From the NCBI GenBank assembly GCA_001724265.1, contig MEDY01000241.1, forward strand, positions 1 through 47,319: 47,319 nucleotides of DNA, written 5' to 3'. Positions 1 through 41,900 of this stretch are shown in pieces. The translations under genes and the position numbers were made by a program. The notes under the pieces are model-generated. The model was not told the DNA's origin. It saw nothing but the letters and a program-made list of their open reading frames with translations, and ran no database searches. How positions within the stretch are numbered: the first letter of the stretch is position 1; each line of letters starts with the position of its first letter. Origin of the DNA: Rhizaria sp. SCN 62-66. Lineage: Eukaryota.

Positions 1-1
1 G

Positions 2-3000
2 GTTTCGCCGGCCGTCGCCGCGCTGGGGTTGTCCCCGCAGGCCGTGCTCGCGGGCGGGACGCTCTTCGCGCGCCTCGCGGCCGCGCCCGCCGCTGCGGCC
101 GCCGCGGGCGCGCTGTAGGGCGAGGCGCTCTCTGCCGCGCATCTGCTGCCGCCGCAGGCGCTGCTGGCCGCGGCCGAGGCCTCGCGCCTCGCGCTCGCGC
201 TTGGCACGCCGCAGGGTCGCGAGGTCGCCGCCGTCGCCGCCGCCTGGGCCGCCGGCGCCGCGACCTACGCCACGGGCCGGTCCGCGGGCGCGCTGCCCGC
301 GCCGCTCGCGCTGGCCCTGGCGCGCGCCGCCGCGCTGGCGCAGCTTACGCGCGCATAGCTCGCGCTGGCCGCCGCGCTGGGGCCCGCGAGCGCCGCCGCA
401 CTGCTGTGCGGCCCGCTCGCCGTCGCCGCGCCCAGCGCGCTCGTCGCGCTGCCCGCGCTCGGGGCTGTCGGCACTGCTGCTGCCGGGGGCCTCACGGTCG
501 CGGTTCCCGCCGCCGCGCTCGCGCTGGCTGGAACGCCCTACGCGGTGCCGTCTTCGGTGTCCGCGGCTGCGCCCGGCAACGCGGCTGTCGGTGACAACGG
601 TTTGCGCCGCGAGAGACTGCCGACAAGCTTCTACGCGCGCTTTGGGCTGGACGCGGGGCAGAGTGACGCCGAGGCGGTAACGGCCGCGGCCACGGGCGGC
701 GCGGCGGGCGTGCTGGCGCTCGACGACGCCACGGCCGCGGCGCTGCACGACGGCGTGCGCGCGCTGCGGCGCTGCCTCGACTCGGCGCTCGCGCTCGCCA
801 CCAGCGCCGCGGGCGCCGCCGCCGCCGCCGTGACCGCGGCCGCCCCGCTCGCGTTCGACCGCGCCCCTGCTGCGACCACTGCATTGTCCTCGTGGTCTGA
901 GACCCGGGCCAGCGGCAGCGTGCCGCGTCTGCTGGGTCCCGACGTCGCCGCCGACACTGACGCCGAGGACACCACCGCCGCTGCCGGCGGCGGCGCGGAG
1001 GGCGTGCACCTGGGCGCCAACGCGCTCGCGTTTCTGCCCGACTGGGCATCGGCGCTCGTCCACGAGGCCGCGCTCGCGCTGTGGAACGCCGCGCGCCCGC
1101 TCGTCGCGGCCGCCGCGCCCGGGCGCTATGCACCGGGCACCGCCGCCGCATCGGCCGCGGCCGTGACGCCCGCGCTGCGCGCCGCGGGCGAGGCGCTGGC
1201 GGCCGTGCAGTCGCCGTTGTACGCGCTGCGCGCGCTGCTGCACGCGGCGACGGCGGCCGCTGACGCGCAGCAGGGGCTCTACGCGCACGCCGCGGCGCAA
1301 CTCCGCAGAGCGTGCGCACTTGACTGGGGCGCGCCCGCTCTCGTGCTGCCCGAGCCCGTGGCGCCGCGCGAGCCCGTCGCTGCGCCTACGCACGGCGCCT
1401 CCGCGCGCGGCGCGCAGAGCAGCCGCCGCCACACCAGCTCGTCCTCCGCGCCCGCCAAGGACGCCGCGGCGACGGCGGCCGCTGCGGCGGCTTCGGTCGG
1501 CGCCCCACCGCTCGACGGCGCCGCGGGCGCGGCCGCGTTGCACACGGGCCCGCGCGCGGCGCTGGCCGGTACGGTCCGCGTGTGGGACGCGCTGCTGCAA
1601 CCGCAGCTGCGTGCCGCGGCCCTGCGCCACGGGCTGGCCTCCGGCGAAGCCAGCACGCTGACGTGGCCGCACGAGCGTGCGCTGCTGCTGCTCGAGCAGG
1701 CCAAGGACGCACCCATCGCGGCCACGCGCTGGCAGCTCGTCGAGCGCGCCAGCGAGCTGCTTACGGCCGCCGTGCGCCGTGCCACGGACTTGCTCGCGCA
1801 GCAGTCTGCGGGCCGCCGCTCGCGCCGCGGCAGTCTCGCCTCGGGCGCCGCCGCCGCCGCGCTGACCGCCGCCGCGTCGGCCGCGGCCGCTGAGAGCGTC
1901 GAGGACGCGTCCGCGGGCGGCGAGCGCGAGACGGCGTGGCGCGCGCTGGCGCTGCGGCCGTGGACGGGCACCGCGGCGTCGCCGATCCCCGTCGCGCGCG
2001 CCTGGCTTGACATCGCGACCACGGCGCTCGCCGCGGCCACGGGCGCACCCACCGACGGCCGCGCAACCGGCGCCGCGCTGGCGCTGGCCCGCGCAGCGCT
2101 GGCGCACGTGCTGCCGCGCCCGCTGTCAGTGTCGCGCGCGGACGCGGCGCAGACGCTGCCGCAGCTTCTGGCGCCCGACGCGGACTTCGTGCCGCTGGGG
2201 ACTGCGCTCGATGGTGAGTCGAGCGGGTCCGATTCCGAGGCCGAGGCCGACACGGCCGCGGCTGCCGGCGGCGACTGGGGCGTCGCGGCCGCCACAGACG
2301 CACGTGTGCTTTCCGCGGGCACCGGCCGCGCCGCCGCGCTGCTGCGGCTACACGCGCTGCTGCTCGACGCCGAGCTCGCCACGGCCACCGAAAACGCCAA
2401 GACCTCCACGTCGACCTCCGCCACCAGCCGCGGCGGCGCCCCGCCGCGCCCGCTGGCGCTCACTGGCGGCGGCGCCCAGCCCGCCGCCGCCGCTGCCGCT
2501 GCCGCTGCGCCTGCGGCGACCGCGGCGACCGCGGCGAGCACCGTGAGCGCGTCGACGCACCTGTGGTCTGAGCCTGTCGCGGGCAGCCAGGACGCGCCCC
2601 GCGCGCTGTCGGGGCTCGCCGCCGGCACGCGGTTGTGGCGCTGGCTCGACCCCGTGTCGGGCGTGTTCCGCGCCCAGCCCCTGCTGCGTGCCGCCGCGCG
2701 CCGGCCCCCCGCGGTCGCAGTCGCGCTGCGCGACCTGGACGCCGCGGCCGCGGCCGCCGCCGTGCCCGCGCGCGCGGCGACCGCGTCGCAGGTGGGCGCG
2801 CTGGCGGCCGCCGTGGAGACGGCCGCGCTGGGCATCGTCAGCGGCCAGACGTGGGCGCCCGCCACCGCGCTTGCTGCTGTGCTCAACGCGCACGCGCCCG
2901 CGCTCACGTTCTTCCTCGCGGCGCACGAGCGCGCCATGCGTGCTGCGCATCGTGCTGACCCCGCGCCCGCGCCCGCGGTCGAATCCACGCCCGCGGCCGC

Positions 3001-6000
3001 GACCCCCGCGACCACGCACGCCCCCGTGGCCCGGCGCGCGCCCAACGCCGGCCTCGGCGGCCGCATGGGCGGGTCGAGCGCCGCGCACGCAGCCGCGCAG
3101 GCCGCTGCTGCTGCTGCTGCCGCTGCGGGCGCGAATGCTCCCTCCGCCGCCGCTCTGGCCGCGGCGTCGCTCCCGCTCTCCGCCGCTGAGTGCCCCGCGC
3201 CGTCAGTGGTCTGGACGCTGCGCGCGCTGCTCGCGGCGACGCTCTCGGTGCTGCCATCCGCCGCGGCCGGCGCGGGCGCCGTGAGCGAGGTGCGCGTGTG
3301 TCTGCGCGTACTGTGTCTCGCCGCGCGTGTACTCGCCGCCGCCGCAGAGGCCGCGGGCAAACACGCTGAGGCCGCAGCGGTGTGCGCCGCCGTCCTGGCG
3401 CTGCCACAGCTTGAGGCCGCGACCGCGCGCGAGAGCGGCGTCGCCGCGGCGGCGTCCGCGGGCGTGCTCGTCGGTGCCGGTGAAGACCTCGGCGGCGCAG
3501 TCAGCGTGCTTGAGCTGGCGCGCCTGCAAGCCGCGCTCGTGCCCGTGTGGACGCGCGCCGTCGTCGTGCTGCTTGCCGCCAGCATGGCGTCCACAGTCGT
3601 TGGCGGCGCGCTGCCCACCGGCGCGACGTTGCCCCCCGGCTCGCCGTCGGCGACGTCTGCCGCAGCGGCCGCGTCCACTGCCGCCGCCGCTGCCGCCGCG
3701 ACCGCGGCCGACGGCGCGGCGCTGCTGTTTCCCGCCGGCGCGCTGCTGCCACAGTTCCCGTTCCCGCCGCGCGCCGCGCTCGCCGGCGCCGCCATCGCGG
3801 AGCTGCTGCAGCTGCCCGCGGCGCTGCTCCCGGTGCCGCAGAAGGCCGTCCTGCTCCGCTCCGCGCTCGCCATCACGGCGGCCGCGGGCGCCGCGGCGGG
3901 CGAGCACGAGGCTGCCGCGCGGCGCGTGTGGGCCGTGCAGGCGCCGACGCTGCTGCAGCTGGGCGGCCAACCCGCCGAGCTCGCGCGCGTGGTCACCTCC
4001 GGCGCTACGCAATGGTTCGCCATCGCGTCCTCCGACGCGCTCAACGCGCTGCTTGCTACCGCGGCCGCTGGCGCTGGGTTCGGCGCTGCACCCGTGGCCG
4101 ACAAGGACCCCCGCGCGGCGGCCGCCGCCCGCGCCCGCGGCGTCAACCGCGGCAGCGTGCGCGGCGCCGTGCTGCCCGCTGCGGGCGAGGCGGTCGCCAC
4201 AGGCCGCGCCGCGTGGACGCCGCTGCTCTGTAACAGCGCCAACGACGGCCTCGCGGCCCCGTCCGCGCTGCCACTGTTCGAGAGCGTGGCTAGCAGCCAG
4301 ACCGCGCCGCTGCCGAGCTCCGTCGCCGCCGCGGCCATCGCCGAGGCCGAGGCCGCCGTGTGGGTGCCGGTGGCGCGTGCCGCCGCCGCCCTGGGGCTGC
4401 TTGACGTCGCGCAGGCCGCGGCCTACAAGGTCGCGTGCATCTGCTCCGTCGTCGTGGCTAGCGCCGCCGAGGACGCCACCAGGAGGGGCCCTGGCCCGCT
4501 CACGGCCGCGGTGCCCGAGGACCTGCGTCCCGCGGCGGTCACCGGGCCCGGCACCGCGCCGCCCGCCTTCGCCGCGTATTTTGGCGGCGCTGCGCAGTCC
4601 CCTGCTCCTGCTGCTGCCGCGGTCACCGCGCGCACGCTCGTGCTCGGCGCAGAGGCGCAGATCGTGCTCGCGCTCATGTCCGCCGCCGCCGCGGCCGCGG
4701 CCGAGAGCGCGTCCCCGCGGTCCGTTGCCGTGGCCCGCGCTGCCGCCTCGGATGCGCTCGCCACCGCCGCGGTATTGTCCATCCGGGTGCTCACGGCGAC
4801 GAGTCCGGCAACCGCGGCGTCGGCGGCCGCGTGCGTCACGTCGCCGTTGCTCTTCACACTCGACGTACAGCTTCCCGCGCTGCTCGCCAGCTCAGCCGCG
4901 CCCGCGACCGTGCGCGCTGCACAGGGCAAGGCCGCGCTCGCCGCCGCCGCGCTCGCGCTCGGCCTGAGCGCCAGCGCGCCCGCTGCCGTCGCGTCCGCAG
5001 TTGCCACCCGGCTCAGCGGCGCGGGCGCCGTGCGCGCCGCCGCCGCACGCGCGCTCGAGCGCATCGCTGCTGCGTGGGCTCGCGGCGTCGCGCGCACCGG
5101 TTCGGGCCCTGGCTGGGCCGCTCGCGCGCTGCGTACGCTCGACGGCCGCCCACGTATCGTGCCGTCGGCCGCGCTCGTCTCCGCGGCCGCGGACGCCGTG
5201 GGCGCCGCCGAGGCCGTCGAGCCGCGCGACGCCGTCACTTTCTCCAGCGCGGTGCAGCTGCTCAACGCGCTTGAACGCGCTGTGCCAGCCGCCGGCAGCG
5301 TTGCGGCCGCGGACACCGCCGCCAACGCCGCCGCGCGCGCCCTCGCGGAGCCGCTGATATGCGTCCTCGAAGGCCTGGGACTTCGCGGCTGCCACCGCGC
5401 CGGTCTGGAACTGACCGGACGCGCGCTCGCGTCGTCGGGCACGACGCCCGCGGCCGGCGGAGGCAACGGCAGCAGCGGCGGCGGCGGCGAGAGCGGCGTG
5501 CTGCCCGCGTCGGCGCTGCCGCGCGTGTGGGCGCACCGTGCGCTGTGCATGGCGCGCCTCGGTCACGACGTTGACGCGCTTGCGCCGCAGGTCGCGCGCG
5601 CCGCCGCCGCCGGCGAGGCCGCCGCGGCCGCGAACCCGAGCGGCGCCGGCGCCGACGCGTCGCTCTTCTCCGCGGCGGGCGCTGCCCTGTGCTCCACACA
5701 TACCGTCGCCGCGGCGCACGCTCTCCCGCCCGCCGCGCTTCAGGCCGCGCGCCTGTCACGGTTCTGGGCCGCGCTGGCGGACGCCGACTCCGCCGCCGAC
5801 GCCGAGGAGCCCCCTGTTGCAAGCGACGGCGACGGCACGGGGAGCTCGCGCGACCAGTTCCGCTTCTACTCCTCTGCGCTCGCGGCGCTGGTGCCTGAGG
5901 CCGCAGCGGGCGAGACGGACGCCGCGCTGGCCGCCGAGCTGCGCGACAACACCACCTTCTCGCTGCTGCGCATTCCCGTGCTCGTGGCGCTCGCGCGCTG

Positions 6001-9000
6001 GCTGCGCGACCGCGGCTTCGGCGCCGCGCACTGCTCGCGCCCGCTGGACGAGGCCCTCCGCGTCGTCGCGGCCGCAGAGTCGCTCAACGCGCAGTTTATC
6101 ATGCACTTTGGGTCCGCCCGCGCCGCCGCGATCGACGCCGCCGCGTCCGCTGCGAGCGCCGAGACGGCGCGCCGCCGCCGCGAAGCGCTGCTGCTGTTGA
6201 ACACGTCCTCCGCTCTCACGGCCGCGGCCGGCTCGCTCGACGCGCCCGTCGCGCACCCGCCGCAGTCGTTCGCGGTCGCCGCGCTGCGCGGCCAGCGCGC
6301 CGGCGTGACGGTGTCCGCGGCCCCGGGCGTGGGCCTCGCCGGCAGTCACCTGGCTGACGCGCTGCGCGCCGTCTGCACCCGTCGCGAGCTCGTTGCGCTG
6401 GGCGCGCCCGCCGCCGCCGAGGGCGCGGTCTCGGGGACCCTCGCCGGCGACGAGAGCGCGTTCGCGGTGCTCGGCGCCCGCTACGCTGAGGAGCTACTGC
6501 TCTGGCTCTTGGCCGAGTCCGCTGCGCTTGTCACCGCGCGCCACAACGTCCCCGTCGAGGTGCCCGTCCCGACCGGCGCGTCGTCCTGGCTCGGCTTCGA
6601 TGTGGCGCTGTTCGTCACGCCCTCGGAGACCGGCGCCGAGCCGTCCGCCGCGGCCGCCGCGATGCCCGCGCTGCTCGCGTCCGTGATTCGCCTGCACGTG
6701 CCCTCCGCGCCCACGCTTGTGGGCGAGATGTTCGCGCTCGCTGAGGCGCTCACGGCGTCGCCGCAGACTTCTGCCGCGGCCGCGGGCCCGCTCCAGCTCG
6801 CCGCACTCATCGCGCGCGTGTGCGGGACCGCGCCCGCCGTCGCGCTGGCGCACCTGCGTCTCTCCCAGCTCGCTGCGGAGGAGCTCATCGCCCCCGCTGC
6901 GGCGGCCGCCGCTGTAGCGCTTCACAACGCGCGCGCAGAGCCGCACCTCAGCTTCGTTCCCCCGGCTGTCGCCGCTGCCGCCCACGCTGTGTTCGCCTCC
7001 GAGGCGGACCCGACTGTTGCGACCGACGCTGCCGACAGCGACGCGTACGCGCGCGCCCTCTCTGGCGCCATGCGGCCCCTCGCGCTGCCGCAGCTGTGGG
7101 TCTCCGTAGCCGCTCACCTCGTCCGAGTGGGCCGCTTGGGCCCCGCGCGCGCGGTCCTGCTTGAGGCGCGCGCGCTCGCCGCGCCGCTCCTTGCTCGCGC
7201 CGCCGTGACTGGCAGCGCGGCCGAGTCATCTGAGGCCACCACAGCCGCGATGTCGCTATCGACCGCACGCCGCGCGCAGGTCGGCCCCGCGCTAGCGGCC
7301 GCGGTGTGGCACCTCGAGTCGCGCGTGGCCGCGCTCGAGGGCGCGCCGCTGCTCGCCGTGCGCCTCGACGCCGCCGCGCGCCGCGCCGCCGACTGCGCCG
7401 CCGTCGCCGTGCGGTTCACCGCCGCGGGCCGCGCCGGCACGCTCGTGTCCGCGGCCGCCGTCGACGCCGCGCTCCCCGGCGTGACGCTGCACGAGCTCTG
7501 GGCCTGGTCCATGGAGCTCCACGCGCGCGTCGGCACGCTCGCGCGCATGCCGCCTCAGCTCGCGCTGCGTCTGCGGCTCCCCGCCGGCGCTGACGCGGCG
7601 CCGATGCCGTCAGCCGACGCCTCCGACGCGTCGCGCGCGGCCGCCGTCGTGCCGCCTGTGATGGACTCCCTGTCGACCGCGCTCAGCCTGCTGCAGACGC
7701 GCGCTGCTGAGACTGGCTGCGCTCCCTCCGCAGCAGTCCCGACTGCTGCGGCGGTTGCGCGCCACGCGGCTTACCTGCAGCGTCTGCTCGCTACCGCGCG
7801 CGCCGCGTCGTTCGCGCTCGACGCGTCCGCGCGCTGTGCCGCCACCGCGCCTGGCGCCGACGTGCTTACGTCAGCCGCGCCAATGCTCGTGCGCGCCGCC
7901 GCCGCCAGCAGCCGCAGCGACGTGCTGCTCTCGACGCTCGCGCCGACCGATGTAGGCGCCGCCACCGCCGCCGGTGCCTCTGCGGGCGCGGCTGCCTTCA
8001 CGTGGGCGCTGTACCCGGGCGCCGACGCGGACGCGTCTTCCTCCTCCGACGAGGACGACGACGACGCCGATGACCAGTCCAGAGCCCGGAGCAAGGTTGT
8101 GGCGGGCCGCTCAGCCGCAGGCACCGGCAGCCCGGCCTCGCGTTCCCCGCGCCTCCCCGTCGCGGCGCCGCGCCCCCCGCGACCCCGCGGCGGCGTTTCC
8201 GCGCTGCTGTTCACGCAGACGCTGGCGCAGGCGCTCGGCGACATCTTGCCTTGTCTGCCCGCGCTGGCCGCCTCGGCCGAGGCGCTCGAGGCGTGCGGCG
8301 AGCTCTCTGAGGCCGCGCTTACGTTGCGGCTGCAGGGCTTCCTCGCCGCGCGTGTGTACGTGCTCGCGCGCGGCCGCGGCGCCGTCGTGCTCCCCCACTC
8401 CGCGTACGCGTCTGCTGCGACTGCGGCCACTGCCGTCGCCGCTGCGGGTGACGAGTCCGCAGTCACCAATGTGGCCGACGTCCCACCCACTGCGGCCGGC
8501 TACGCCGCGCTCTCGCGCGCCGTCGGCGGCCCCTAGGGCGTGCTCTACTCAGCTCTAGCGGCGCTGAAGCGCGCGGAGACGCTTGCTGAGCGCGCCCTCG
8601 CACCGACTGACCCCGCGAACGAAGGCTGCGGCGGCCGCGGGGTGCGCGCGCTGGCACTCGCCCGCATGGAGCTGGCGCAGACGCTCCGCCTCGGCGACGC
8701 GATGCTGTGCTCCGAGCAGCGCGCCTTCGCCGAGTCCGGGTTCCGCCGCGACGCGCGCGCGCTGCGCGAGCACCGCACCGGCGCGCCCAAGTCCGCGCGT
8801 GGCCACACCGTGGCGGCGCTGCGCTTCTTCGAGGAGCACCCCGAGGTCTTCGGCCGCGACCGCGCTAACAGGCCGTATGGACTCGCGGAGCAGGCGCTTG
8901 ACGCGGCTACCTCGGCGCTCGCCCTGCTCGGCGGCGCAGAGGCCGGCGCAAGCGCGTTGCCGCCGCTGCCGCTGGTCGCATGGGCTGAGCTCGAGGTCGG

Positions 9001-12000
9001 CGCCGCGCTCGCCGCGGTTGCCGCTGCCCGCGAGCTCGACGGCGCTCTCACCGTCGCCCGCTCCGCGCGCCGCGCTGCGTCTGCCTCGACGGCCTCTGCG
9101 GCCGCCACACTCGCCGCGTACGCCGATCTGGCGGCGACGATTGCCGAGTCCAACAACGCGTCTCTGTCGCCCACTGTGTCGGCGACGCTGCCGTCGTGGG
9201 CGCTCGAGCCCTCGCTCGGCCAGTCGTCGGGCCACTCGTCGACCTCGTCGCTGCTGGGTGCGCCCCGCGTGCACCCGCTGCTGGCCGCGTGCCCCGCGGC
9301 CGCGCTCCCGGGTTCGCTCGTGACCTGGCTGTCGTCCGCAGGCCCGCTTGCCGCACTCGCGCTCGCACCGCTGGGCGACTTTGACCCCGCGCTGCTCGTG
9401 CCGGACGCGGCCACGCAGGCACTCCTGCTCGCTGCCCCTGCCGCGGCGGCGATCACCGCCAGCGCCGCCGCCGCCGCCGCCGCGCGTGCCCCGTTCAGCG
9501 GTCTCTTCGGTGGCACGCCGACGCTCGCGCCACGCTCGCGATCGCCGTCGCCCGCGGCGCTCCCCCGCCTGACGCTCAACGCGCAGCCTGGCACCGGCGG
9601 CGCACGCCGTGGTGGGGCGCGCGGCGGCCGTCTCCGCGCTGCGACTGCGATCAGCGCCGGCGCTCTGACGCTCGCGCCGACGACCGCCGCCGCGTCGGTG
9701 CCGTCCGCGGGCGTCAGCGAGACCGCGACGTCCGAGGCGCTGTCGCTCGCCGCGCTGACGCAGAGCGCGCCGCTTGCGCTATGGGCGCCCGTGCACCTCG
9801 CACTCTGGACGCTCACGCTCTCCGTCGTCAACACGGCGGCGCCCATCGCGGCCACGAACGCCGCTGCGGCGTCCGCTGCCGCGTCGGCGGCGGCGCTCGC
9901 TGCCCAGGAAGGCGCCTCGCGCAAGCGCGCCGGCAACGCCGTCGCAGCCGCGAACGCGGGGACTGCTCGCGGCGCCGGTGGCCAATCGCGCGCTGTGGCG
10001 AGCGAGGCAGACTCGACCGGTAGTCTCAGCGAGCTCTGGAGCAGTGACGCCGCGGTTGTCTCGAACGTCTACGGCCCCGCGCTGATCTCTGCCGCGCACG
10101 CTAGCGACGAGGGCGCGCTGCTCGTCGCCGAGACGGCGTTGGCGCGCGCCCGCATGCACCTTGCGTCCCTCGGTCACGCCGAGGCTGGTGTTGGCGCCGC
10201 CGACCCCGTGGGCTCCGCGATTGACAACGCGTGGTCGCGCGCGGCCTTCGAGGCGGATATCGATGCAGTTGTCGCCGCGGCAGCGCGCCTGACTGCGGGC
10301 CCCGACGGCGATGAGGTCGACACGGGCGAGTCCAAAAGCACCGAGAGCGCCCCGCTTGCGCCGCTGGCCCGCGCCTACCTCGCGCGCGTGCGCGCTGCCG
10401 GCGCGTTGTCCCGCGCTCTCTCGCACGCTCTCGCCCTGGACATGGCTTCCGCCGCCGGCGCCGCCGCGCTCGCGCTCGCCCGCCTGGTCGGCACCGCGCA
10501 CCCGCTGCTCACGGCGCGCCTGCTCGCGCTCGCGCTCAACTGCGCGCACCGCGAGTCCGCGCTGCGTGCCGTGCGCGACCACCACGCGCCGCGCCCCGAG
10601 ACGCTGGTGGCCGCGGACGCGCAGCCCGCGCCCGAGGCTGTGGTGCTGGCGCGCCGCGAGTTCCTCTCCGCCGCTGCCCCTGGCGCGCTGGGCGCGATCT
10701 TCGCTCACGGCGGCTGCGGCGCGCCCGCCGCACTGGCGTCGACTGAGCAAGTCACGGCTGAAGCCTTCCTCGCGCACCACGCGCGCGCGGCCGCGGTCAC
10801 GGCGCTGCGCTTCCCGCCGCGCCCCGAGGGCCTTGCGGCCGCAGCGGCCGAGGAGGAGGCCGAGGCCGCCGCCGCCGAGCTGACTCGCCGCGGTCTTACT
10901 TTCCTGGCGGCCGACGCGACGGCACTGTGTGCGGCCGCGCTGCCCGCGCTGCCCAGCCACGACGCGCTGCTGCAGGCGGGCGAGCTGCTGGGCGGCGCGA
11001 GCGGGCTGCCGTCGCTGCGCGCCGCCGCACAGGGCTCCGACGCTGCGGGCGGACTGGGCGTGTTCCAGCTCGACTTCGCCTCGATGCTCTCGCTGCTACC
11101 CGCGACCATGCGCGCAGTGCAGGTCACATACGATGCCGCCACGGGCACGCTCTACGGCGCAGTCTTTGCCGCGCCCGAGTCCTACGCCAGCATCGCGCCC
11201 TCTGCGCCTGCGGCCGCCGCGTCTGCTGGTGCTGATGCGGCCGGCGGCGCCGCGGCCCCTGCTGCCGGGGCGCCCGCTACCGGCGCGACGACTGCGCGCC
11301 GCGACAAGAACAGCGAGGCCGCGGCTGCTGCTGCCGCCGCGGCTGCCGCTGCTGCTGCAGTCAACGCAGCTGCCGCCGCCGCCGAGCAGGCGATTGCCTC
11401 CGCCGGGCTCGCTGGCCTGCCCGCCGCCGTGTCCCCGTCTGCGCTCGGCAGCCGCTACGCGCCCTCGCGCGCGGTCCGCGTCGCTGCGGTGACGCTCTCC
11501 GTGGCCGCACGTGCCCGGCTCGCGCGCCTGGCGGGCGACTGGGCCGCGATCGAGCAGGCTGTGGCCGCGGGCGTCGCGCGCCACGACGCGCAGCGCTTCG
11601 CGGGCCCACTCGAGGACGTCGAGCGCCGCTTTGGCGCGCTCACGGCCGCGCTAGACGCCGTCACGCTCCCGCTGTGGGCGCAGCTTGGCGTCACCCCGCA
11701 GAAGCACTATGACGCACGCTTCGCCACCGCCAAGGCCGCCGCTGCCTCCGCGGCTGCCGCCGGTGACGCTGCCGCCATTGCTGCCGCAGAGGCTGCCGCG
11801 GCGCTTGCGTCGACGGAGAACGCCCGCGTGGGCAGCCGGGGCCGCGCGACTGGTGCCGCGGCCGCGCCGCAGACCCAGCAGCGCGCGGGCTCGCGCTCCA
11901 AGACGCGCGCGTCTGCGAACGGCGCCGGCGGCCGCGGGCGGCGCGGCGGCGACGGGGCCGCCGCGGCCGACGCGGGCGCCGCGCCCGGCAGTGTTGACGC

Positions 12001-13933
12001 GAGCGCCCCGGCGCAGGGCATACTGACCGACCGCGACGTGGTGCTGCTGACCGACGGCTTCCTCTTCCCGCTGCCCTGGGAGGCGCTGGCACCCTTCGCG
12101 GGCGCGCGTTCAGTCACGCGCGATTTCTCGCTCGCCTCACTGTGCCGCCGCCTGACCACACACGCGCCCCGTGCAGTCGCCGCGGGCGTGCCCGTGCCCG
12201 TGACGGTGACTGGCGGCCAGGCGCTCGCGCCGCCCGCGCTGCCAGCGTCGCAGTCGGGTGAGCTGCCCCCCGCAACGTCCGCGCAGGCGTCGCCGCCAGC
12301 GTCGCCCACCCGCTCGGCCGGATCGTCACAGGTGCTTTCCACCAGTACAGGCGGCGCTGCGACAGGGGGCTCGGCGGACGCGCTCTCGCTGCAGGTGCCC
12401 GCCGCGCCCGCCGCGCCCACGCCCGCGCCGCCGTCGTCCGATGCCGCGGCGCTGCCCGGCGCGCGGCTTGACTTCATCGTGCTGGCGCCCAAGTCCGACC
12501 CGGGCTCGACGCGCCTCGCACTTGCGACTGAGTACGCGCAGCGCTGCCAGATCTCTGCCGTGCTCGCCACTGCGGGCGCGTTGCAGCAGTCCGCTGCGGC
12601 AGCCACGGCCGGCGCGGGCGGCGGCAAGGGCGGCCGCGCCGCTGCGAGCGCTGCCGCCGCGGCTGCCGCAGCCGCAAGCGCGGGCGGTGGCGGCGCGTGG
12701 CCCGCGCAGGGCCCGCGGCTCGGCAACGGGCTCGCGCTGCCGCTGCCGTGGGCGGGAGGCGTGTGGCGCCAGGGCCCGCCATCGGAGCAGGAGTGGGCGC
12801 GCGCCTTCTCCGCAGCCGCGGGCACCGCGCCAGTGGGCGCCGGCACGGGGCTGGGTGTGATTGCCCCGCGTGGGGCGCTCAGCGACGACGCCGTGGGCAC
12901 GCAGACGGTTCTCAACGCGCCGCTGTTCCCGGCCGTCGCAGCGGCGGCCGCGACCACGGCGCCCGCACCGCTGCCGCCCGCGGGCGCGTCTGCGCTCGTG
13001 TACGCGGGCGCCGACGCCCTGAGCGCGGCCGCGGGCCCCCTGCTGGCGGCGTGCGACGCGCGCCGCGTGCAGGCCGTGCTCGCGTTCGACCGCGCTACGT
13101 CGTCCGTGGCCGCGGCCAGCGTCGCCGCCGCGCTGGGCTCCGCCGCCTCCGCATCCTCCGCGTTCGCTGCCACAAGCGCGGGTGCGCAGTCAGAGGGCGC
13201 GGGCGGCATCACGTCCGCCGCTGGCCCGGCGCGCGCGCGAAGTGCGTACGAGTCTGCGCTGCTGCTGTCGCTGCAGGGCGTGGGGTCAGTGTTGCTGCAC
13301 CGCTTCCCGATCGCCAACGCGGCCGTCGCGGCTGAGGTGTGTGTGGTGCTGGGACACTTTGTTATGGGCCGCCGCGCGACGCTGGGCGCAGCAATGCAGG
13401 CGTGGCGCCGCGCGCCCGCGCCCGCGCTGTGCCAGCGCCCGCACTCGGACGACGAGACGGGCATGTTCCTGGCCATGGGACTCGACGCCAGCGCCGGGCC
13501 TGACGCCGGCGCCACAGGCACGCCCACGCTCGCGACCATTACCGCAACTGGGACGACCGGCGGCGTGCCGTCTGCTGCGGCGAGCGCGCGCGGCATCGGC
13601 AGCGTCGTCGGCGGCGGCGGCGCGCGGCGCCCCGGCGGTGCGGCTGGGTCCGCGGCGGCTGCGTCGGCGAGCGCGGCGGCCCAGGAGCAGGCAGAGCAGC
13701 ACGCGGCGTCGGTTGCGGCGCTGCGGCGCTTCGCGGCGGCGGGCCGCGTGGAGTTGCTGCCCGCAACGCTCTCGCAGGCCGCCAGCACGGGCGAGGCCGT
13801 CGCGCAGGGCATGCTCACGCCCATCCTCGGCAACGCCGGCTACGACGCAGGCGCCTCGTGGGCGCTGCGGCTCTACGACCGCTACAACGCGCTCATTGTT
13901 GGGCTGCCTGATCCCGACATTCTGCGCGCGTAA
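2..13933 (+). CDS. CFAP46: CFAP46/TTC40-like cilia- and flagella-associated protein, 5'-truncated by the window edge, Ala-expanded, with three in-frame TAG codons
   Basis: One frame (position mod 3 = 2) from base 2 to TAA 13931-13933, interrupted only by TAG at 116, 356 and 8534; ORFs 545..8536 and 8540..13933 share this frame. Blocks recalling CFAP46 occur in the expected order: HERALLLLEQAK (~1670), VWVPVARAAAALGLLDVAQ (~4358), RALCMARLG (~5536), LVALARWLRDRGF (~5981), WVSVAAHLVRVGRLGPARAVLLEA (~7097), then the C-terminal CHAT-like region VVLLTDGFLFPLPWEAL..SVTRDFSL (~12038), PSEQEW, ALLLSLQGVGSVLLHRF, YNALIVGLP. Recognised by eye. Confidence 0.7.
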
Positions 13934-14135
13934 GCAGGACCTCTCGTTGTATTTGCGAATTTTGTGAGCTATGCAACGCAGTACGTATTCCTAATTCAGA
14001 CACAAGTTGACTTAGACATGGTCACGTCTATCGATATTCATTTGCTATCATACTATTATTAAGACAAGATACAACTAACTACATACAATACATAAGCTTA
14101 TTTGATTACACACGTTTTTTCTTTATTACGTCTGG

Positions 14136-14750
14136 TTATTCGGCAACTTCAAACACGAACATTTTGTTTCCGATACGACACACAACTTGATTGAGGGAGA
14201 ACGGTGCCACGGCTGCTGCAGCCGCTAACAAAGCATCGTTCGGGCGTTCAAGCTCCTCTTTTGGCAGCGTGCGTGATGCAGAAGCAAATGACGCATGCGG
14301 AATCGGGTCTTTGTAAAACTTCGGCAGTCCGAACACAGAGAACACACCTACGGAACGATAAACAAGCAAACGAATAAAGGGGGACCACAGGAGTGCGGTG
14401 AATTTAGAATTCAATACACACCGTTAGATCAAACCAAGTGTAATATCTCCATATATACGTACCGTCGACAGCGCTCGTGAGCTTTGCGAAGTCGCCCCCC
14501 AGTCCTTCCAGCGGCGCGGCAACAAACCAGCGCGAGCGCGAGTCATTCTCTAGCACTTGCAGCGCGCCGCCCACGACCACGGCGGGCAGGAACGCAGGGG
14601 GAACACGTGGCTGTCCCGCAGTCGTCGCCGTGGCTGCTGTGGTTGGGGCTGTGCGCGTGAACGTGACGTGCACGACGTGGGAGTCGGCGCCGAGTCCGCT
14701 GGCGGCCGCGGGCAGTGGATACACCGCAGTGCGCTCAGTGAGAGTGAGGC

Positions 14751-16573: not shown

Positions 16574-17325
16574 TGAGGCGCAGAGAAAGAGAAAGACGCG
16601 GGCGTTGTATTGGGGGAGCGAACTACTGCTGCACTGCGTTGCTGCGATGCTTTGCTGCGACGGTGTGATGACAGCTCATTGCGATGATGAGGGTCGGACA
16701 TGTACAACTTCAGAGTCTGACACTTCTGTACGTCCGTATACAGGGCTGATGTGGGCCACTAAGCCGCTCTTACACGGCCAATTCACACATTTGTGTTATG
16801 CTCAGGTTTGTTATTCTTTATCTAGTTCTTACTTTCGCACTTGCATTGTGCAATCGCGCCAATGTTACTTAGACTTCTTACCAAATGGCCGCATGCGCCA
16901 CTCGAGTGCGTATCGATGCAATGGCCGTGCAGATCGATGTGCAATACAAATCAATTCATTTCCATTGGGATCAAACATCACGATAATCAGTGGTTAGAGT
17001 GTGTATTCAAATCTGAACAGGCATCAATCGATGCGATTTATGACATGTATGATCCGGTAATGGGCCAAACCACACACATGGCCATGTCTCATATTGAGCA
17101 CATGCCAAAACTGGCCGGGTCATGGCAAATCACAATAGCACACACGCATCACTTCACTCGTCAGCAGTCAACTGTCAGCAGCCAGCGGTCCGTAGTCAGC
17201 AAAGATGTGGGTAGCGTCGCGTCACAGCGCTTTTAGAGCACCACGTCACAGCGCACTTAAAACTCGAGGTGCATGCGCGCGCGCACTGTCAGTACGTCAT
17301 GGCAGCGTCGCTCGCGTCAAAAGAG

Positions 17326-18435
17326 TCAAAATTCGAGGTGCCTGCGCGCACCGACAGCACCTACACTGGCTCTCACCCCGTTTGCCGCTGCAGCAACACC
17401 AGCAGGACCATCCGAGTCCGCCACTGCCGCATCAGAGGCAGTCGCAGCGGCGGCGGCAGCGGCGGCGGAGGCGCGGGTGGCGGCCTTAGTCTTGCTCTGC
17501 AACGGCGTCCCGTCGGCCGACAGCATCAGCGTCGCCGTCGCCGCCTGAGTGCCAGCGCCAGCGCGCGCGCTCTTTACACAAATCGGGTTTGCAGCGGGGC
17601 GGGCAGGAGACGGCGAGGCCAACGGCGACACCGCAGCAGCAGCAGCAGCAGCAGCGGCGGCGGCGGCAGCGGCGGCGGCCGAGGGACGGCCGCGCTTGAT
17701 GGCGACCGAGTCTGTCGGAAAGGCTCTCGAGGCCAAGGCCGAGGCAGTGGCAGTGGCGGTGGCGGGCGTAGCGGGGTGACTGTAGTGGGGGCACGAGGCC
17801 AGGATCATGCTGAACCGCACTGGCGAGGGCTGAGCGGGCTGCTGCAAAGGTGCGGCGCGTCGGCCCACGCCAGCGCCAGTGTCAGTGCCAGTGTCAACCC
17901 CAGAGCCAGCGCCAGCGCCAGCGCCTCCAGCTCCAGCACCAGCACCAGCGCCAGGGGGCGAGGGCCCGGCGCAGCGCGTGCGCGCAGAGGAAGCCGGCAC
18001 GGTCGGCGTCAGAAACACCGCCGCAGTCGGCGGCACAGCGGCGCCAGCTGCGACGGCGGCGGCGGCAGAGGAGCGGGACAGGGACTGACGCGGGGTGTGC
18101 ACGGCTGCTGCGGCTGTGGTGGAGTCGCCGGCGAGCGAGATGACGCGCGTGGGCGTCAAGAGCAAGGGGGCACCGTCGTCGTCGGAGAAGATCTCGGCGA
18201 GGATCTCGGCGGCGAGCGCGGTGTTGTCCGAGGCAGTGTGCGGCTCGGTGGCGGCGGCGGAGCAAAAGGCGGCCCCGGCGAGCACGTTCGCGGAGGTTTC
18301 GTTCGAGACGGCGACGGTCTCGGAGTGGGAGAGCTTGGGGACGGATGCTGAGGTGATAAAAGAGGCCTCAACCGCGCAGATAAGCTCGTCGAGGACATCC
18401 GCCACAATGGGCGCGATGTGGCCGTCGTGGGACAT
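17326..18435 (-). CDS. Hypothetical disordered Ala/Pro/Ser/Thr-rich protein, 369 aa
   Basis: ATG-initiated ORF filling a GC-rich island between AT-rich spacers, with the same Ala-rich style as neighbouring genes and a pyrimidine tract plus CAG 12 nt upstream; stop TGA. No domain recognised. Confidence 0.65.
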   Translation of the reverse strand: MSHDGHIAPIVADVLDELICAVEASFITSASVPKLSHSETVAVSNETSANVLAGAAFCSAAATEPHTASDNTALAAEILAEIFSDDDGAPLLLTPTRVISLAGDSTTAAAAVHTPRQSLSRSSAAAAVAAGAAVPPTAAVFLTPTVPASSARTRCAGPSPPGAGAGAGAGGAGAGAGSGVDTGTDTGAGVGRRAAPLQQPAQPSPVRFSMILASCPHYSHPATPATATATASALASRAFPTDSVAIKRGRPSAAAAAAAAAAAAAAAAVSPLASPSPARPAANPICVKSARAGAGTQAATATLMLSADGTPLQSKTKAATRASAAAAAAAATASDAAVADSDGPAGVAAAANGVRASVGAVGARRHLEF

Positions 18436-18939
18436 GGAGCGGCGACGCTGGTTGAAAGAGCTTGAAAGTGGAACTGTTCAAGGAAGAATACAACAGACAG
18501 AAGCACAGATAAGCAAGGTGAAAATTGAATCACAAGTAGGAAAACAAAAGTTCTATTCAATATAAACAAGGAATATACTAATGGCGGAGAGACATGCGAG
18601 GTAGAGCGTTGTAGTGTTGGCGCCAAAAATCTCTCCTTGGCTGCCTTGGCCGAGACCCGAGTCAACCCGGAACGACGTAGCGTAACTGGAAACGAAGATA
18701 TGCACACCAAGAGATCGCAGGTTTTAAGTGTTAGCGTCTTCTTGTCGGTGCACCGTGTTCAACATATATAAACCATATTTGTTTCTTCATAAGTCCTCAC
18801 CCATCCTCTCGATCTATTCAACTCTTTGCAGTCAGTTTGACCGTTCACCACAAACCTGCTACGGTATCTCCGCTGACCTCCGCAGCCCCTCAATTCGTAA
18901 GCCCGAGTTTGCACACGTGTGCCTCAGGTTGAGCGCACA

Positions 18940-31472: not shown

Positions 31473-33575
31473 ATGAGTCTGGTCAGATCTCAAACAGGTC
31501 TCAAGACTGTTTCTCGACTTGTATCAACGCCGCAGTCGTTAAAATGGGGTGCTCTGACTAAAAGCACACATGTCCATCCTTTACCCACACAGATGCGCTT
31601 GCTCTATAACGGCCCACTGTGGCAACCTGCTCAGCAAGCGGCCGCTCTAGTCCAATCATCGTCCAGCTTCAAGTTGGGCCGCGCCCCTTCTTTCATCGCA
31701 GCCGACGTCCTGCCCGCGCCAGCGCCCGCTCGTCACGACGACCCACTGTTCCCGCATATTGACCACACCACTGCCCCGGCGCTGACCCCAGTTCCCGTGC
31801 CCCTCCCCGCGGACGGTCGTTTGACGCTGCACGCATTGAGAGCGCTCGTGTCCGCAGGCCTCATCGACTCCGTTGTCCTGGCCTTCCCCGACATCCACGG
31901 CCGACCTATGGGCAAAACGCTCGACGCGCGGTACTTTCTGGCGCACGGCCTGCGCGGCTCGCACGCGTGCGCGTACCTTCTGGGCTGCGACGTGGCCATG
32001 ACGCCGCTGCCGGATGCTGCAGTGCTGCCGGGCACGGACGGGCGCTACGGTGACGTCGAGCTTGTCCCGGACATGAGCTCTCTCTGCGTTATGGCGTGGC
32101 GCGAGAAAACTGCAATGGTCGTATGCGACGTCTATCTGCAGCAACAGCCACAGCCGCGGGAGCTGGGGGGCTCCCACGCAGTTGCGGCCGATGAGACAAC
32201 TGTGCTAAGCGGCAGTGTAGTTGCATCCAACTCGTTGCTCTCACAGACCGCGTTACAGCAGCAGGCTAAGACATGTCAAGCGAGCCTGATCAACAAAGAG
32301 GCAACAGAGCAGCACCTAGAGGTTGATTCAGCGCCGCGCACGATGCTGCGGCGCCAACTGGCCCGCGCCCGCGCACTGGGGTTCACGGTGACCGCGGCCA
32401 CAGAGCTTGAGTACTACCTCCTCCAGCTGCCCGTGCTAAGCCCCACATTGCGCGCGGACAGCGGGCACAGCGGCGGCAGCGACGGCGCGCTGCCTGGCTT
32501 TGGCGAGTCCGCTCTACTGGCGCTGTTGCCGCGGTTGCCGTCGCAGGACTATCACCTGTTGCAAGCTGGCCGCGACGAACCGCTCTCGCGCGCGCTACGA
32601 AGTGCGCTCACACGGTCAGCTGTGCCAGTTGAAGGCTCCAAGGGCGAGGCTGGACCCGGACAACAGGAGCTCAACACACGCCCTGCAAATGCGCTGGCGG
32701 CGGCTGATGCAACGGTGCGGTATAAGCTCTGCGTCAAAGATGTTGCGCGCGCGTGGGGCCGCGCTGCAACGTTTATGGCCAAGCCGTTCGCATCTCTCGC
32801 TGGATCGGGCTGTCACTTGCATGTGAACCTTGCCTGGGCTGACAGCAACGCAGATAGTCATATCAGCACAAAGGTGGCGACGTCTGCAAGTGAGAACGAG
32901 ACCAACACGGCGTGGCAGCAGGAGTACACGGCAGATGGCGATCCTGTACTTGGCGAGAATGCGTTCGCAGGCCGTGGAGGCGAAGAGTTACTGCGCGCCT
33001 TTGTGGGCGGCGTCGCCGCGCACACGCCCGCGATACTGCCGTTATTTGCGCCCAACCCGAACGCGTTCGCGCGGCTCCGCGCCGCGGTATGGGCCCCTGC
33101 GCGTGTAGGCGCGGGCGAGGACTCGCGCGCCGCGGCACTGCGCACAGTTGGCGCTCCCGGTGCGCGAGGGCGCAGGCTCGAGGTGCGCGTGGCGGGCGCG
33201 GACGCGAACCCGTACTTGGCTCTCGCAGCGGTGGTAGCGGCAGGACTAGACGGGGTCGAGCGGGCGCGGGACGCAGTGCGCGAGAGCGTGAGGTCACCGG
33301 GTGCCGCAACAATGACGACCACAATGACTGCGATGACCCGTGACGAGGTCGCGCGAATGGGAGCAAAGGCTGCGGTGGGCGCTGTCCCGGAGCAGGCGAT
33401 GCCGCGGTCGCTGCGAGAGGCGCTGGCGCTGTGGAGCGCGCCGGACTCGTTTGCACGGCGCGCATTCGGCGATGCAACGGTGGAGCATTTGGGGGCCGTG
33501 CTGGTGGCGGAGCAGGACGCGTTTGAGCTTACGGTCGGCGACTGGGAGCGCGAGCGCTATTTCGAGCAAGTATGA
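31473..33575 (+). CDS. Glutamine synthetase-superfamily gamma-glutamyl ligase, bacterial GlnA4/PuuA-like, with N-terminal extension, 700 aa
   Basis: IDSVVLAFPDIHGRPMGK, YGDVELVPD, ATELEYY, GEAGPGQQELN, ATFMAKP, GSGCHLHVNL, RLEVRVAGADANPYLALAA, DWERERYFE. No intron needed; stop TGA. Alternative ATG at 31593. Confidence 0.9.
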   Translation: MSLVRSQTGLKTVSRLVSTPQSLKWGALTKSTHVHPLPTQMRLLYNGPLWQPAQQAAALVQSSSSFKLGRAPSFIAADVLPAPAPARHDDPLFPHIDHTTAPALTPVPVPLPADGRLTLHALRALVSAGLIDSVVLAFPDIHGRPMGKTLDARYFLAHGLRGSHACAYLLGCDVAMTPLPDAAVLPGTDGRYGDVELVPDMSSLCVMAWREKTAMVVCDVYLQQQPQPRELGGSHAVAADETTVLSGSVVASNSLLSQTALQQQAKTCQASLINKEATEQHLEVDSAPRTMLRRQLARARALGFTVTAATELEYYLLQLPVLSPTLRADSGHSGGSDGALPGFGESALLALLPRLPSQDYHLLQAGRDEPLSRALRSALTRSAVPVEGSKGEAGPGQQELNTRPANALAAADATVRYKLCVKDVARAWGRAATFMAKPFASLAGSGCHLHVNLAWADSNADSHISTKVATSASENETNTAWQQEYTADGDPVLGENAFAGRGGEELLRAFVGGVAAHTPAILPLFAPNPNAFARLRAAVWAPARVGAGEDSRAAALRTVGAPGARGRRLEVRVAGADANPYLALAAVVAAGLDGVERARDAVRESVRSPGAATMTTTMTAMTRDEVARMGAKAAVGAVPEQAMPRSLREALALWSAPDSFARRAFGDATVEHLGAVLVAEQDAFELTVGDWERERYFEQV

Positions 33576-38979: not shown

Positions 38980-41900
38980 ATGTCTTCCGCCACCGCTTCC
39001 TCGCCCGTGGCCCCCGAAGGCACGAGCGCTGTGCCTGCAACGCACCGTGCAAGCGACGTCGTCGTCGTCAAGTCCGAGCACGATCCCAACGAGTACCGCC
39101 ACTACACGCTCGCCAACGGGCTCGCCGTGCTGCTTGTCAAGACGCCATATGGAGCCGCCAACGCGGCGGATAATGACTCTGCTCCCGTGGCCGCCGAGGC
39201 CGACGCTGCGACTGAGGCCGCGATCACCACTCCCCCACTTCCAGCCGCGTCGCCCGCGACGGTGAGCGCGCCGGCCGGCGGCGCAGTGAGCAAGCCCGCC
39301 GCGGTTGCGATCAGCGTGCGCACGGGCTTCTTCAAGGACCCCGCCGCGTTCCCAGGTCTTGCGCACTTCCTGGAACACATGCTCTTCATGGGCTCCGGTA
39401 AGTACCCCGGTGAGAACCAGTGGGAAGAGTTCATCTCCGCGCACGGCGGGTACTCGAACGCGTCCACTGACGCCGAGCACACCGTCTACCAGTTCGAGAT
39501 CCATCCGCGCAAGCTCGTCCCCGCGCTCGACATGTTCGCGCACTTCTTCATCTCGCCGCGTTTCGCGCCGGATGCTGTGGGTCGCGAAGTCCGCGCCGTG
39601 CACTCGGAGTTCAAGGAGACGCTGCAGAGTGACTTCGCGCGCGGGCTGGATGTTGTGTCCGAAACGTGCGTCTCGGGGCACCCGCTGTCGATCTTCGGCT
39701 GGGGCAATATCGACTCGCTGGAGAAGGAGCCCGCGCGGAGGGGACTCGTCACACGTGATGCGCTCGTCAAGTTCCACGGCGAGAACTACTCCGCTGCGCA
39801 CATGACGCTCGTACGTTTTCGCATTCTATGCGTTTTTTATTATCAATCTATCTGAATTATGTATTGATACCGTCTTGCTTGCTTACTTGGCTCATATTTG
39901 TTTTAATATCATCGTGCTCTTTGCTCTCTCTGTAGTGCGTTGTCGTCGACTCCTCGCGTGAGGCGCAGTCCTTTGACGAGCTCATCGACGCGATCAACGA
40001 CACGTTTTCCGCCGTCCCCGTCATCTACGCCAACAACAACGACGATGGCAACGACAGGGGGAGTGCCGGCGCTGAGATGACTGGTGGCAATGCTCAGTCT
40101 GTGACAGCTCGCCGCCCTCGCGCGCGCAACGACTATGCAGACACGCCGCACCCGTTCCTCGGCGCGTGCGCAGGCCACCTGTGCCGCATTGCGCCCGTGC
40201 GCGACACCGCCACGCTCTCAGTCACCTGGGCCGTGCCCTGCCAGCACTCGGCCTACAACGCCAAGCCCGTGTCCGTGCTGGAGATGGTCATCGGCCACGA
40301 GGCCGAGGGCTCGCTGCTCGCGCTGCTTAAGACCCGCGGGCTCGCCACCGCGCTGACCGCGGGCGTCGACGGCGACGACGTGGCGTTCGGCTCGGGCCAC
40401 TGGATCTTCTCCGTAGCCGTCACGCTCACCGTCCGCGGCGCGGCGCAGTGGCGCGAGGTCGCCGCGCTTGTCGTCGCCGCGCCGCGCGCGCTGGCCGCCG
40501 CGAGCGACGCCGAGCTGGAGCGGCTGTGGGCCGAGCTGCGGGCGATCCGCGCCGCGTCGTTCCGGTACGCGCCGCAGCAAGACGCGCTGGACTTCGCGGA
40601 AACGACCGTGGGACTGATGCAAGTCTATCCGGCGCAGGACACGCTGTCGGGCAGTGTATTGGTGGCCGAGAGCGATGTCCCGCGGCTGCGGGCGCTGCTG
40701 GCGCTCATGACGGCGGCGCGTGCGCGCTACGACCTCTCGAGCAAGGCCGAGACGCGGCGGCTGCAGGCGCTGCCCAACTGGGGCAAGCCTGTCCAGGCGC
40801 GGCCGGTGCAGGCCGCCTACGCGCGCGCGCTCGCGAAAACGGCGGCGGCCGGCGGTGCTACTTCCGAGCGGAAGGACGCCTCCGCCGGCAACCACAGCGG
40901 CAGCGATGAGGACGAGGACGAGGACGAGGACGAGGGCAAGGACACTGCGGACTCTGATGAGGCCGCGATTGCCGCCGTGAGTGACAGCGACATGGCGTTT
41001 GACGGCAACACTGTCTACACCACCAAGTACTTCAAGGTCAAGTTCTCCCGCGAAGTTCTGCCGCCGGCGCTGCTGGCTGAGTGGGACACCGCCGCGCCGC
41101 CCGCTGAGCTGCAGGTGCCGGCGCCGAACGAGTTCATCGCGACCGACTTCACTCTGGAGCCCGTGCGGTCCCCGTGGGAGGTGGCGCCCGCGGTGTTGCG
41201 GGACATCGCCGCAGCCAACGCGCGCGCCAACGCGGCGGCGGGCCGGATCACTGCCGACGCCGCTGACGCCGCGGTGGCCGCGGTTGACTCGGCCGTGGCC
41301 GCCATCGTCGCTCGCCAGCGCGCCAATGCCGCCGCCGGCCGCCCCGCGTTTTCTGCTGGTGACGACGCTGCTAGTGTGCAGTATCCCGCGTTCCCGGTCA
41401 CGCGCGCGCTAGCGGAGGGCTACCCGGCGCTGTTGCGCGACTCGGGGCTGCCGTCTGCGGCCGCGGATGACAGCAGCAGCGCGACCCAGCTCGGCGACTC
41501 CGCCCGCGAGTGCGAGCGCGACTGCCACGACTGTGACAGTGGAGCAGAGAGCGGCGTCTGGCTCGAGCGCGCGGGCGGGTACCCGCGCCACTTGATGCGC
41601 CACCCCGCCCTCTGGCGCCCCGCCCCGCGCTCCCCCGCTAACGCCACTGCCGCTGCGACTGCAGCGAGCGCGGATGTGCATGTGCCCGGGAGCGAGCTGT
41701 GGTACCTGCCCGACCCCCGCTTTCGCGCCCCGCGCGGCAGCATCGTGCTCGTGCTGCAGTCCCCCGCCGCCTACGCGACGCCGCTGCACGTGGTGCACAC
41801 GCGTCTCCTCCTCGCGCTGCTGACCGACGCACTGGACGAAACCACCTACGCTGCCGAAGTCGCCGAGACGCGCGTCGAGACTGACTGCCTCCGCGCGGGG

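Follow-up and report, generated by a model that had tools for sequence, protein, structure and literature searches.

The DNA studied here, a window of 47,319 nucleotides from contig MEDY01000241.1 of Rhizaria sp. SCN 62-66, opens with a giant protein-coding gene whose single continuous reading frame is interrupted by three TAG codons. We propose, tentatively and at somewhat less than an even chance, that UAG is decoded as an amino acid in this organism, whose DNA comes from a bioreactor/wastewater community. UAG-only nuclear reassignments are among the rarest variants of the genetic code. The frame lies on the forward strand (positions 2-13933), is still open at the 5′ end of the window, and comprises 4,643 codons followed by a TAA terminator (13931-13933), beyond which there is a spacer of 44% guanine plus cytosine (GC). 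Its sequence is about 78% GC, its product is 31% alanine, and it belongs to no recognised family. The in-frame TAGs are found at 116-118 (context CTG TAG GGC), 356-358 (GCA TAG CTC) and 8534-8536 (CCC TAG GGC), all on the same strand.

A listing of all stops confirmed that TAG 116, TAG 356 and TAG 8534 share one frame and that they are the sole stops within 2-13933 upstream of the terminal TAA; an earlier reading made from the sequence alone had stated both this and the absence of any TAA, TGA or frameshift. The remaining five frames of positions 1-13933 contain 56, 38, 22, 29 and 78 stops, and in the giant gene TGA is absent in frame, while the two off-frames have 31 and 50 of them. GC by codon position remains at about 0.80/0.67/0.88 in each kilobase. 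We also computed a codon-usage log-odds score, for which the rest of the giant gene served as the training set. In each of the 120-base windows around the TAGs the score prefers the same frame, and the pieces delimited by the TAGs score +0.39 (2-115), +0.38 (119-355) and +0.14 (8537-8665). Windows of 43 codons have an in-frame mean of +0.32 (standard deviation 0.13) and never exceed -0.20 off frame; the 43 codons of 8537-8665 score -0.63 and -0.97 in the two off-frames, and their GC by codon position is 0.84/0.63/0.79. Coding style is therefore unchanged on either side of the TAGs by both measures, as had been claimed. As the stop counts and the codon-usage scores keep to the same frame across each TAG, we conclude that the TAGs interrupt a single frame. 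Dinucleotide TA is found 80 times in the giant gene against 162 expected, that is, half. The first methionine codon of the frame comes only after 978 codons (2-2935), and methionine makes up 0.6% of the protein. The true start of the gene is upstream of the window.

The sequence between the third TAG and the next in-frame ATG (8537-8665, forward strand) bears on a different explanation, quite improbable in our judgement, by which TAG 8534 is a true terminator that separates an upstream alpha-solenoid gene from a downstream gene of normal separase size starting at ATG 8666. The first in-frame ATG downstream of 8534 is indeed that at 8666, in agreement with the sequence-only reading, and it has C at -3, whereas four confident starts have A at this position. 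The 43 codons that precede it have 75% GC, look like coding sequence in the same frame and do not resemble an intergenic spacer, the eight spacers measured in the window being 35-56% GC and 200-2,140 bases long. The chance of a stop-free stretch of 43 codons in the same frame is nonetheless about 0.18, and two genes would fit with the resemblance of the downstream 1,798 codons, taken alone, to separase/CHAT clusters (1,249-2,025 amino acids) and of the upstream part to FAT/TPR clusters. They would also fit with the occurrence of stops in all three forward frames within the 75 bases 8534-8608 (TAG 8534, TAG 8556, TGA 8565, TGA 8587 and TGA 8608). What a pair of genes leaves unexplained is TAG 116 and TAG 356: the sequence around both is strongly coding, and the frame has its first ATG at codon 979. 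Several reverse-strand stops also cluster at 8534-8608, and GC at third codon positions (GC3) dips locally just past the third TAG.

Introns of this organism can be recognised. The single clear intron of the window, at 39811-39935 inside the gene for an M16 (insulinase-type) peptidase, is 125 bases long, AT-rich and of the form GTACGT...TGTAG, so that canonical introns evidently exist in this organism and are easily told from its GC-rich exons. The statement that the TAGs are flanked by neither an AT-rich spacer nor an intron agrees with this and with the 75% GC found after 8534. Both giant genes of the window are without introns. Two GT..AG intervals were considered as introns and rejected: that at 115-358 (244 bases) would move the frame into one that stops at 592, and that at 8522-8536, GTCGGCGGCCCCTAG, has 15 bases, unlike the AT-rich intron of 125 bases at 39811-39935. 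Frameshifting at 8534 was rejected as well, the +1 frame stopping at 8556 and the -1 frame at 8587.

Local signals that could act on individual TAGs were looked for in the flanking sequence. When the 120 bases 3′ of each TAG were folded, the structures obtained were not better than those of shuffled sequences (z = +1.23, +0.51 and -0.69), and no downstream motif common to the three sites was found. Both results count against a standard code in which ordinary UAG stops are read through at specific sites to yield some full-length protein, an explanation that we regard as improbable. It would agree with a frame that is open downstream of each TAG, and TAG 356 has C as its next base; C after a stop codon is a leaky context. 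Three leaky stops in series would, however, multiply their losses, and the near-complete readthrough then needed is in effect the decoding of UAG that we propose.

A gene-specific correction of the message is conceivable too, namely adenosine-to-inosine (A-to-I) RNA editing that converts UAG to UGG (tryptophan). Restorative editing of this kind is described for filamentous ascomycetes in PMC11156358, PMC10776026 (71 pseudogenes in Fusarium graminearum) and PMC4817773. The ascomycete system gives the same picture as the giant gene, with isolated, gene-specific in-frame UAGs in otherwise intact open reading frames (ORFs) and TAG still serving as a stop elsewhere; U at -1 is shared by definition of UAG, and tryptophan is compatible with all three TAG contexts. 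Editing in fungi prefers an A within a hairpin loop, and here the two systems part: the predicted unpaired probability of the TAG A is 0.98 at one site, TAG 356, for which a small hairpin with the TAG in its loop is predicted, and 0.0 at the other two. The controls for pairing gave a mean unpaired probability of 0.85 (32 in-frame TAY codons) and 0.55 (10 out-of-frame TAGs). Taking into account that the organism gives no sign of being a filamentous ascomycete and that editing leaves the absence of TAG terminators, described below, unexplained, we consider it very improbable.

The genuineness of the TAGs was analysed by comparing the Logan contigs (not reads) of four sequencing runs over positions 1-14400 of the window. 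These runs are X1, which is probably the source run; X2, from another sample of the same study; X3, whose contig sizes and depths are identical to those of X2 and which is therefore probably the same data filed twice; and X4, a poly(A) metatranscriptome of another study. Contigs of X1 span 92-1919 and 5173-14400 with 0 differences, the one over TAG 8534 having a depth of 22.7, and a contig of X2/X3 spans 6045-8779, TAG 8534 included, with 0 differences and a depth of 6.5. The locus as a whole is covered about 13-23x in X1 and 5-6x in X2. Moreover, two versions of the upstream ORF, P0001 and P0122, which come from two ENA contigs of 49,702 and 47,303 bases, both end exactly at TAG 8534. As the contigs of the second sample and the two ENA assemblies carry it, TAG 8534 is a stable feature of the population and not an amplification or assembly error. 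P0001 and P0122 differ at one residue in 2,659 aligned (at about 1900 of the window, EDAS[A/P]GGERE), which is alanine in the window and in P0122 and proline in P0001, so that at least two near-identical variants or assemblies of the giant gene exist.

The other two TAGs stand differently. TAG 356 is bridged, with 0 differences, by the X1 contig 92-1919 only, that is, in the probable source run alone. TAG 116 is present in that same contig, again with 0 differences, and is not properly bridged, since no other re-assembled contig covers it and this one ends 24 bases to its left. The caution that amplification errors could mimic in-frame TAGs hence falls for TAG 8534 and stands for 116 and 356. 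These are the only sites at which a sequencing or assembly error is plausible, and we judge an error at one or more of the three sites to be hardly probable: no alternative letter is reported at any of the nine TAG bases in the four runs (cover by the RNA run X4 is unknown there), and TAG 8534 shows 0 differences in X1 and X2/X3 and ends the ORFs of two ENA assemblies.

Contigs of the poly(A) RNA run match the giant gene in eight listed pieces, located on both sides of 8534, at about 99% identity, and the locus is for this reason probably transcribed. None of the listed pieces crosses a TAG. Depth in X4 is uninformative, many short GC-rich matches originating from other organisms.

We next weigh UAG decoding against the explanation that the TAGs are genuine nonsense mutations, the gene or allele being dead, dying or dispensable in the bioreactor populations and the downstream frame an undecayed relic. 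We hold this to be possible, if rather unlikely. As 1.57% of the single-base changes in the giant gene create a stop, three neutral nonsense hits imply about 190 substitutions. Frameshifting indels generally arise at 0.05-0.1 per substitution. At these assumed rates, three nonsense hits would precede the first frameshift with a probability of 0.0025-0.014, rising to 0.085 at 0.02 indels per substitution, and the probability of two further hits after the first without a frameshift is 0.018-0.057. Throughout 13.9 kb there is no frameshift and no other stop. A decaying pseudogene is expected to show a mixture of frameshifts and stops together with a loss of codon bias, whereas the giant gene has no frameshift, TGA or TAA, maintains its scores past each TAG, and carries the same TAG (8534) across samples and assemblies; that contigs of an RNA run match both halves likewise tells against a relic. 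A young unitary pseudogene or null allele, for its part, resembles the giant gene in having premature stops limited to one gene.

Terminator usage in the window also speaks against nonsense mutations under the standard code. None of the 11 gene-like ORFs, 6 of which have Pfam support, ends in TAG (TAA 5-6, TGA 5-6). If TAG made up 15-30% of terminators, the probability of this outcome would be 0.02-0.17.

Several observations weigh against UAG decoding, and some of them favour nonsense mutations directly. All three TAGs are in one orphan, fast-evolving gene rich in alanine, and eight other gene segments (Dopey, type III glutamine synthetase, protein disulfide isomerase, M16 peptidase, USB1/HVSL, Snf7 and one ORF), with 7,435 codons in all, contain 0 TAGs, a count that bears out the remark that the other genes of the window, Dopey included, lack in-frame TAGs. 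At the rate of the giant gene, 4.8 TAGs would be expected in these segments (probability of none, 0.008), and the probability that all three fall in the giant gene by its share of codons is 0.057. The conserved genes of the window are without in-frame TAG, and one 47-kb window leaves room for a rare sense codon. Eleven terminators are few, and standard-code protists can nearly avoid UAG, Guttulinopsis being an example in PMC5304391. The absence of TGA and TAA, which had been offered as an argument for reassignment, proved weak: of the 655 ways in which one base change turns a codon of the giant gene into a stop, 474 (72%) lead to TAG, so that three TAGs in three random nonsense hits have a probability of 0.38. 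Two of the three TAGs have G as the next base; G after a stop codon favours termination. TAG 116 and TAG 356 are without independent confirmation. No homologue was aligned to any TAG site in the protein searches or the JGI metagenome scans, and for that reason neither glutamine nor leucine can be inferred as the meaning of UAG. The 47-kb window contains no tRNA gene and no Rfam match, and the eRF1 gene is not within it. Lastly, the X4 contigs differ from the window by 12 synonymous and 13 non-synonymous changes (n = 25), a synonymous share weakly above chance (p = 0.04 against 29.5%, p = 0.13 against 35%), some of the differences perhaps coming from other organisms; purifying selection downstream of the TAGs is not demonstrated by them, and between-strain selection on the frame is not significant, as a dispensable gene would have it.

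Of the proposal that UAG is a sense codon, then, the continuous frame, the genuineness of TAG 8534, the absence of TAG among 11 terminators and the lack of frameshifts stood up to analysis; reassignment itself was not shown, all TAGs being in one orphan gene. With a single gene, UAG decoding and three unusual knock-out mutations cannot be told apart.

Nuclear codes in which UAG alone is reassigned and genes end in UAA or UGA have been described, and the precedent invoked for the giant gene is real. PMC5304391 reports two non-ciliate cases: Rhizaria sp. exLh, in which UAG encodes leucine (384 in-frame UAGs in 71 genes, with 56 UAA and 15 UGA terminators), and Iotanema spirale, in which UAG encodes glutamine and accounts for about 8% of the glutamine codons. 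UAG reassignments in phyllopharyngean ciliates are dealt with in PMC11687900. The giant gene is like exLh and Iotanema in that UAG is the only in-frame stop and terminators are UAA and UGA only (here 0 of 11 are TAG), and no local recoding signal was found in it. It differs in that, according to PMC5304391, UAG in those organisms occurs in many genes, conserved ones included, and at conserved leucine or glutamine positions, whereas here there are three UAGs in one orphan gene. The genome of the window differs from theirs also in being extremely GC-rich. The more specific proposal of a new and independent UAG-only code change at an early stage, probably to glutamine, in an extremely GC-rich wastewater eukaryote that would have given up UAG as a terminator and where UAG has come back only in fast-evolving genes, may be correct; GC pressure in such a genome would not be expected to remove TAG, and we advance it with still more reserve than UAG decoding as such.

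That ribosomes read through UAG, by what mechanism and with which amino acid, is what we infer. The three TAGs would be genuine genomic codons in a single coding frame still kept open, and UAG would stand for an amino acid, inserted either by a CUA-anticodon tRNA or through efficient near-cognate decoding, with a release factor that recognises UAG poorly. On mutational grounds glutamine would be the likeliest meaning, tryptophan being possible. TAA and TGA would terminate genes, and UAG would be used rarely as a sense codon, all examples to date being in a fast-evolving, low-complexity giant gene.

If UAG is decoded, the organism would add one more, from outside the ciliates, to the few UAG-only nuclear codes known. 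A rare sense UAG would represent codon capture at an early stage and would put to the test the idea that a stop codon can be lost before it is widely reused; every predicted protein of the organism would need to be called again. If the TAGs are knock-outs, the gene would be an ordinary dying one, with the lack of frameshifts as a minor curiosity. In either case, gene callers applied to metagenomes split the giant gene at its TAGs: P0001 and P0122 end at 8534, and the ESM Atlas entry begins right after it.

With respect to the product of the giant gene, the sequence-only reading had placed CFAP46-like blocks on both sides of 8534. This identification was not supported, as no Pfam family, PDB chain or homologue matched. 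Pfam searches gave nothing at E<=0.01 for either half of the protein and nothing at E<=10 for four sub-pieces, and the CFAP46 N-terminal TPR model PF25439 did not match, being only partly covered since the N-terminus of the gene is outside the window. A phmmer comparison with the whole set of PDB chains, which presumably includes FAP46/CFAP46, found no such chain at E<=1 or E<=10 and gave matches at chance level only. The matches to Asx (E=0.0015), in a low-complexity stretch, and to Sperm flagellar protein 2 (E=4.9) were both rejected as chance-level. An exhaustive HMMER search of residues 2267-3466, which span TAG 8534 (translated with table 15), against 1.84 billion representative proteins recovered only the window's own ORF, and a word-indexed search with residues 2500-3500 recovered that ORF alone. 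A word-indexed search with the C-terminal 749 residues gave no match and missed the own protein too, which makes it a weak blank. Related loci were sought in JGI metagenome contigs by two scans, in which 597 and 595 stretches matched the pattern and none was confirmed.

Leads came solely from a comparison of language-model features in the ESM Atlas. The downstream 1,798 codons have feature similarities of 0.95 and 0.93, with 195-202 shared features, to clusters in which all members carry Separin_C, and a C-terminal region with separase/CHAT-like features, to be taken as a lead only, lies at 12017-13930 on the forward strand. The upstream 2,044 codons have features like those of FAT/TPR-type helical repeats, with low recognition. 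The sole trace of CFAP46 is a feature match of the upstream part at rank 9 (0.88) to a cluster with TPR_CFAP46_N in 44% of its members. An AlphaFold2 model of the C-terminal 638 residues, computed with no alignment, was unusable (predicted local distance difference test 38, predicted template modelling score 0.23). By eye, the catalytic His/Cys pair was not seen where the separase motif presumably places it, an inspection that does not amount to a test. As in separase/CHAT proteins, a long N-terminal part of alpha-helical character precedes a C-terminal region, here one with Separin_C/CHAT-like features; the giant protein differs from these proteins and from CFAP46 in that neither family was matched in Pfam, PDB or HMMER searches. 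We describe the product as a giant alanine-rich alpha-solenoid, of no demonstrated family, whose C-terminal region is possibly separase/CHAT-like. The half encoded by 8537-13930 may be a separase-like pseudoprotease joined to an alpha-solenoid of great length.

The neighbours of the giant gene are ordinary eukaryotic genes that encode USB1/HVSL, Dopey, a type III glutamine synthetase, Snf7, a KDEL-ended protein disulfide isomerase and the M16 peptidase. The label given to Dopey (4,110 codons) was correct, Pfam recognising Dopey_N and DOP1_C. Besides the isomerase itself (100%), its nearest full-length relative is a JGI protein with 63% identity. Other named matches of nearly full length reach about 41% or less (animals, Filamoeba), and those to Mortierella-like fungi have 46-52% identity over only about one fifth to one third of the query. 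These matches did not yield a taxonomic placement of the organism. The gene for type III glutamine synthetase (31473-33572) is located 200 bases (35% GC) downstream of Dopey and codes for a long N-terminal extension, its Pfam match beginning at about residue 195. Composition varies strongly along positions 1-47319: the long genes are 75-80% GC (GC3 0.86-0.88), the conserved shorter genes 60-70% and the spacers 35-56%. Gene models are ambiguous at the ORFs 17215-18351 (forward strand) and 17326-18477 (reverse strand). They are equally ambiguous at three overlapping ORFs, 44683-46200 (reverse), 44725-46188 (forward) and 46035-47318 (reverse), which have no family and no clear GC3 signal.

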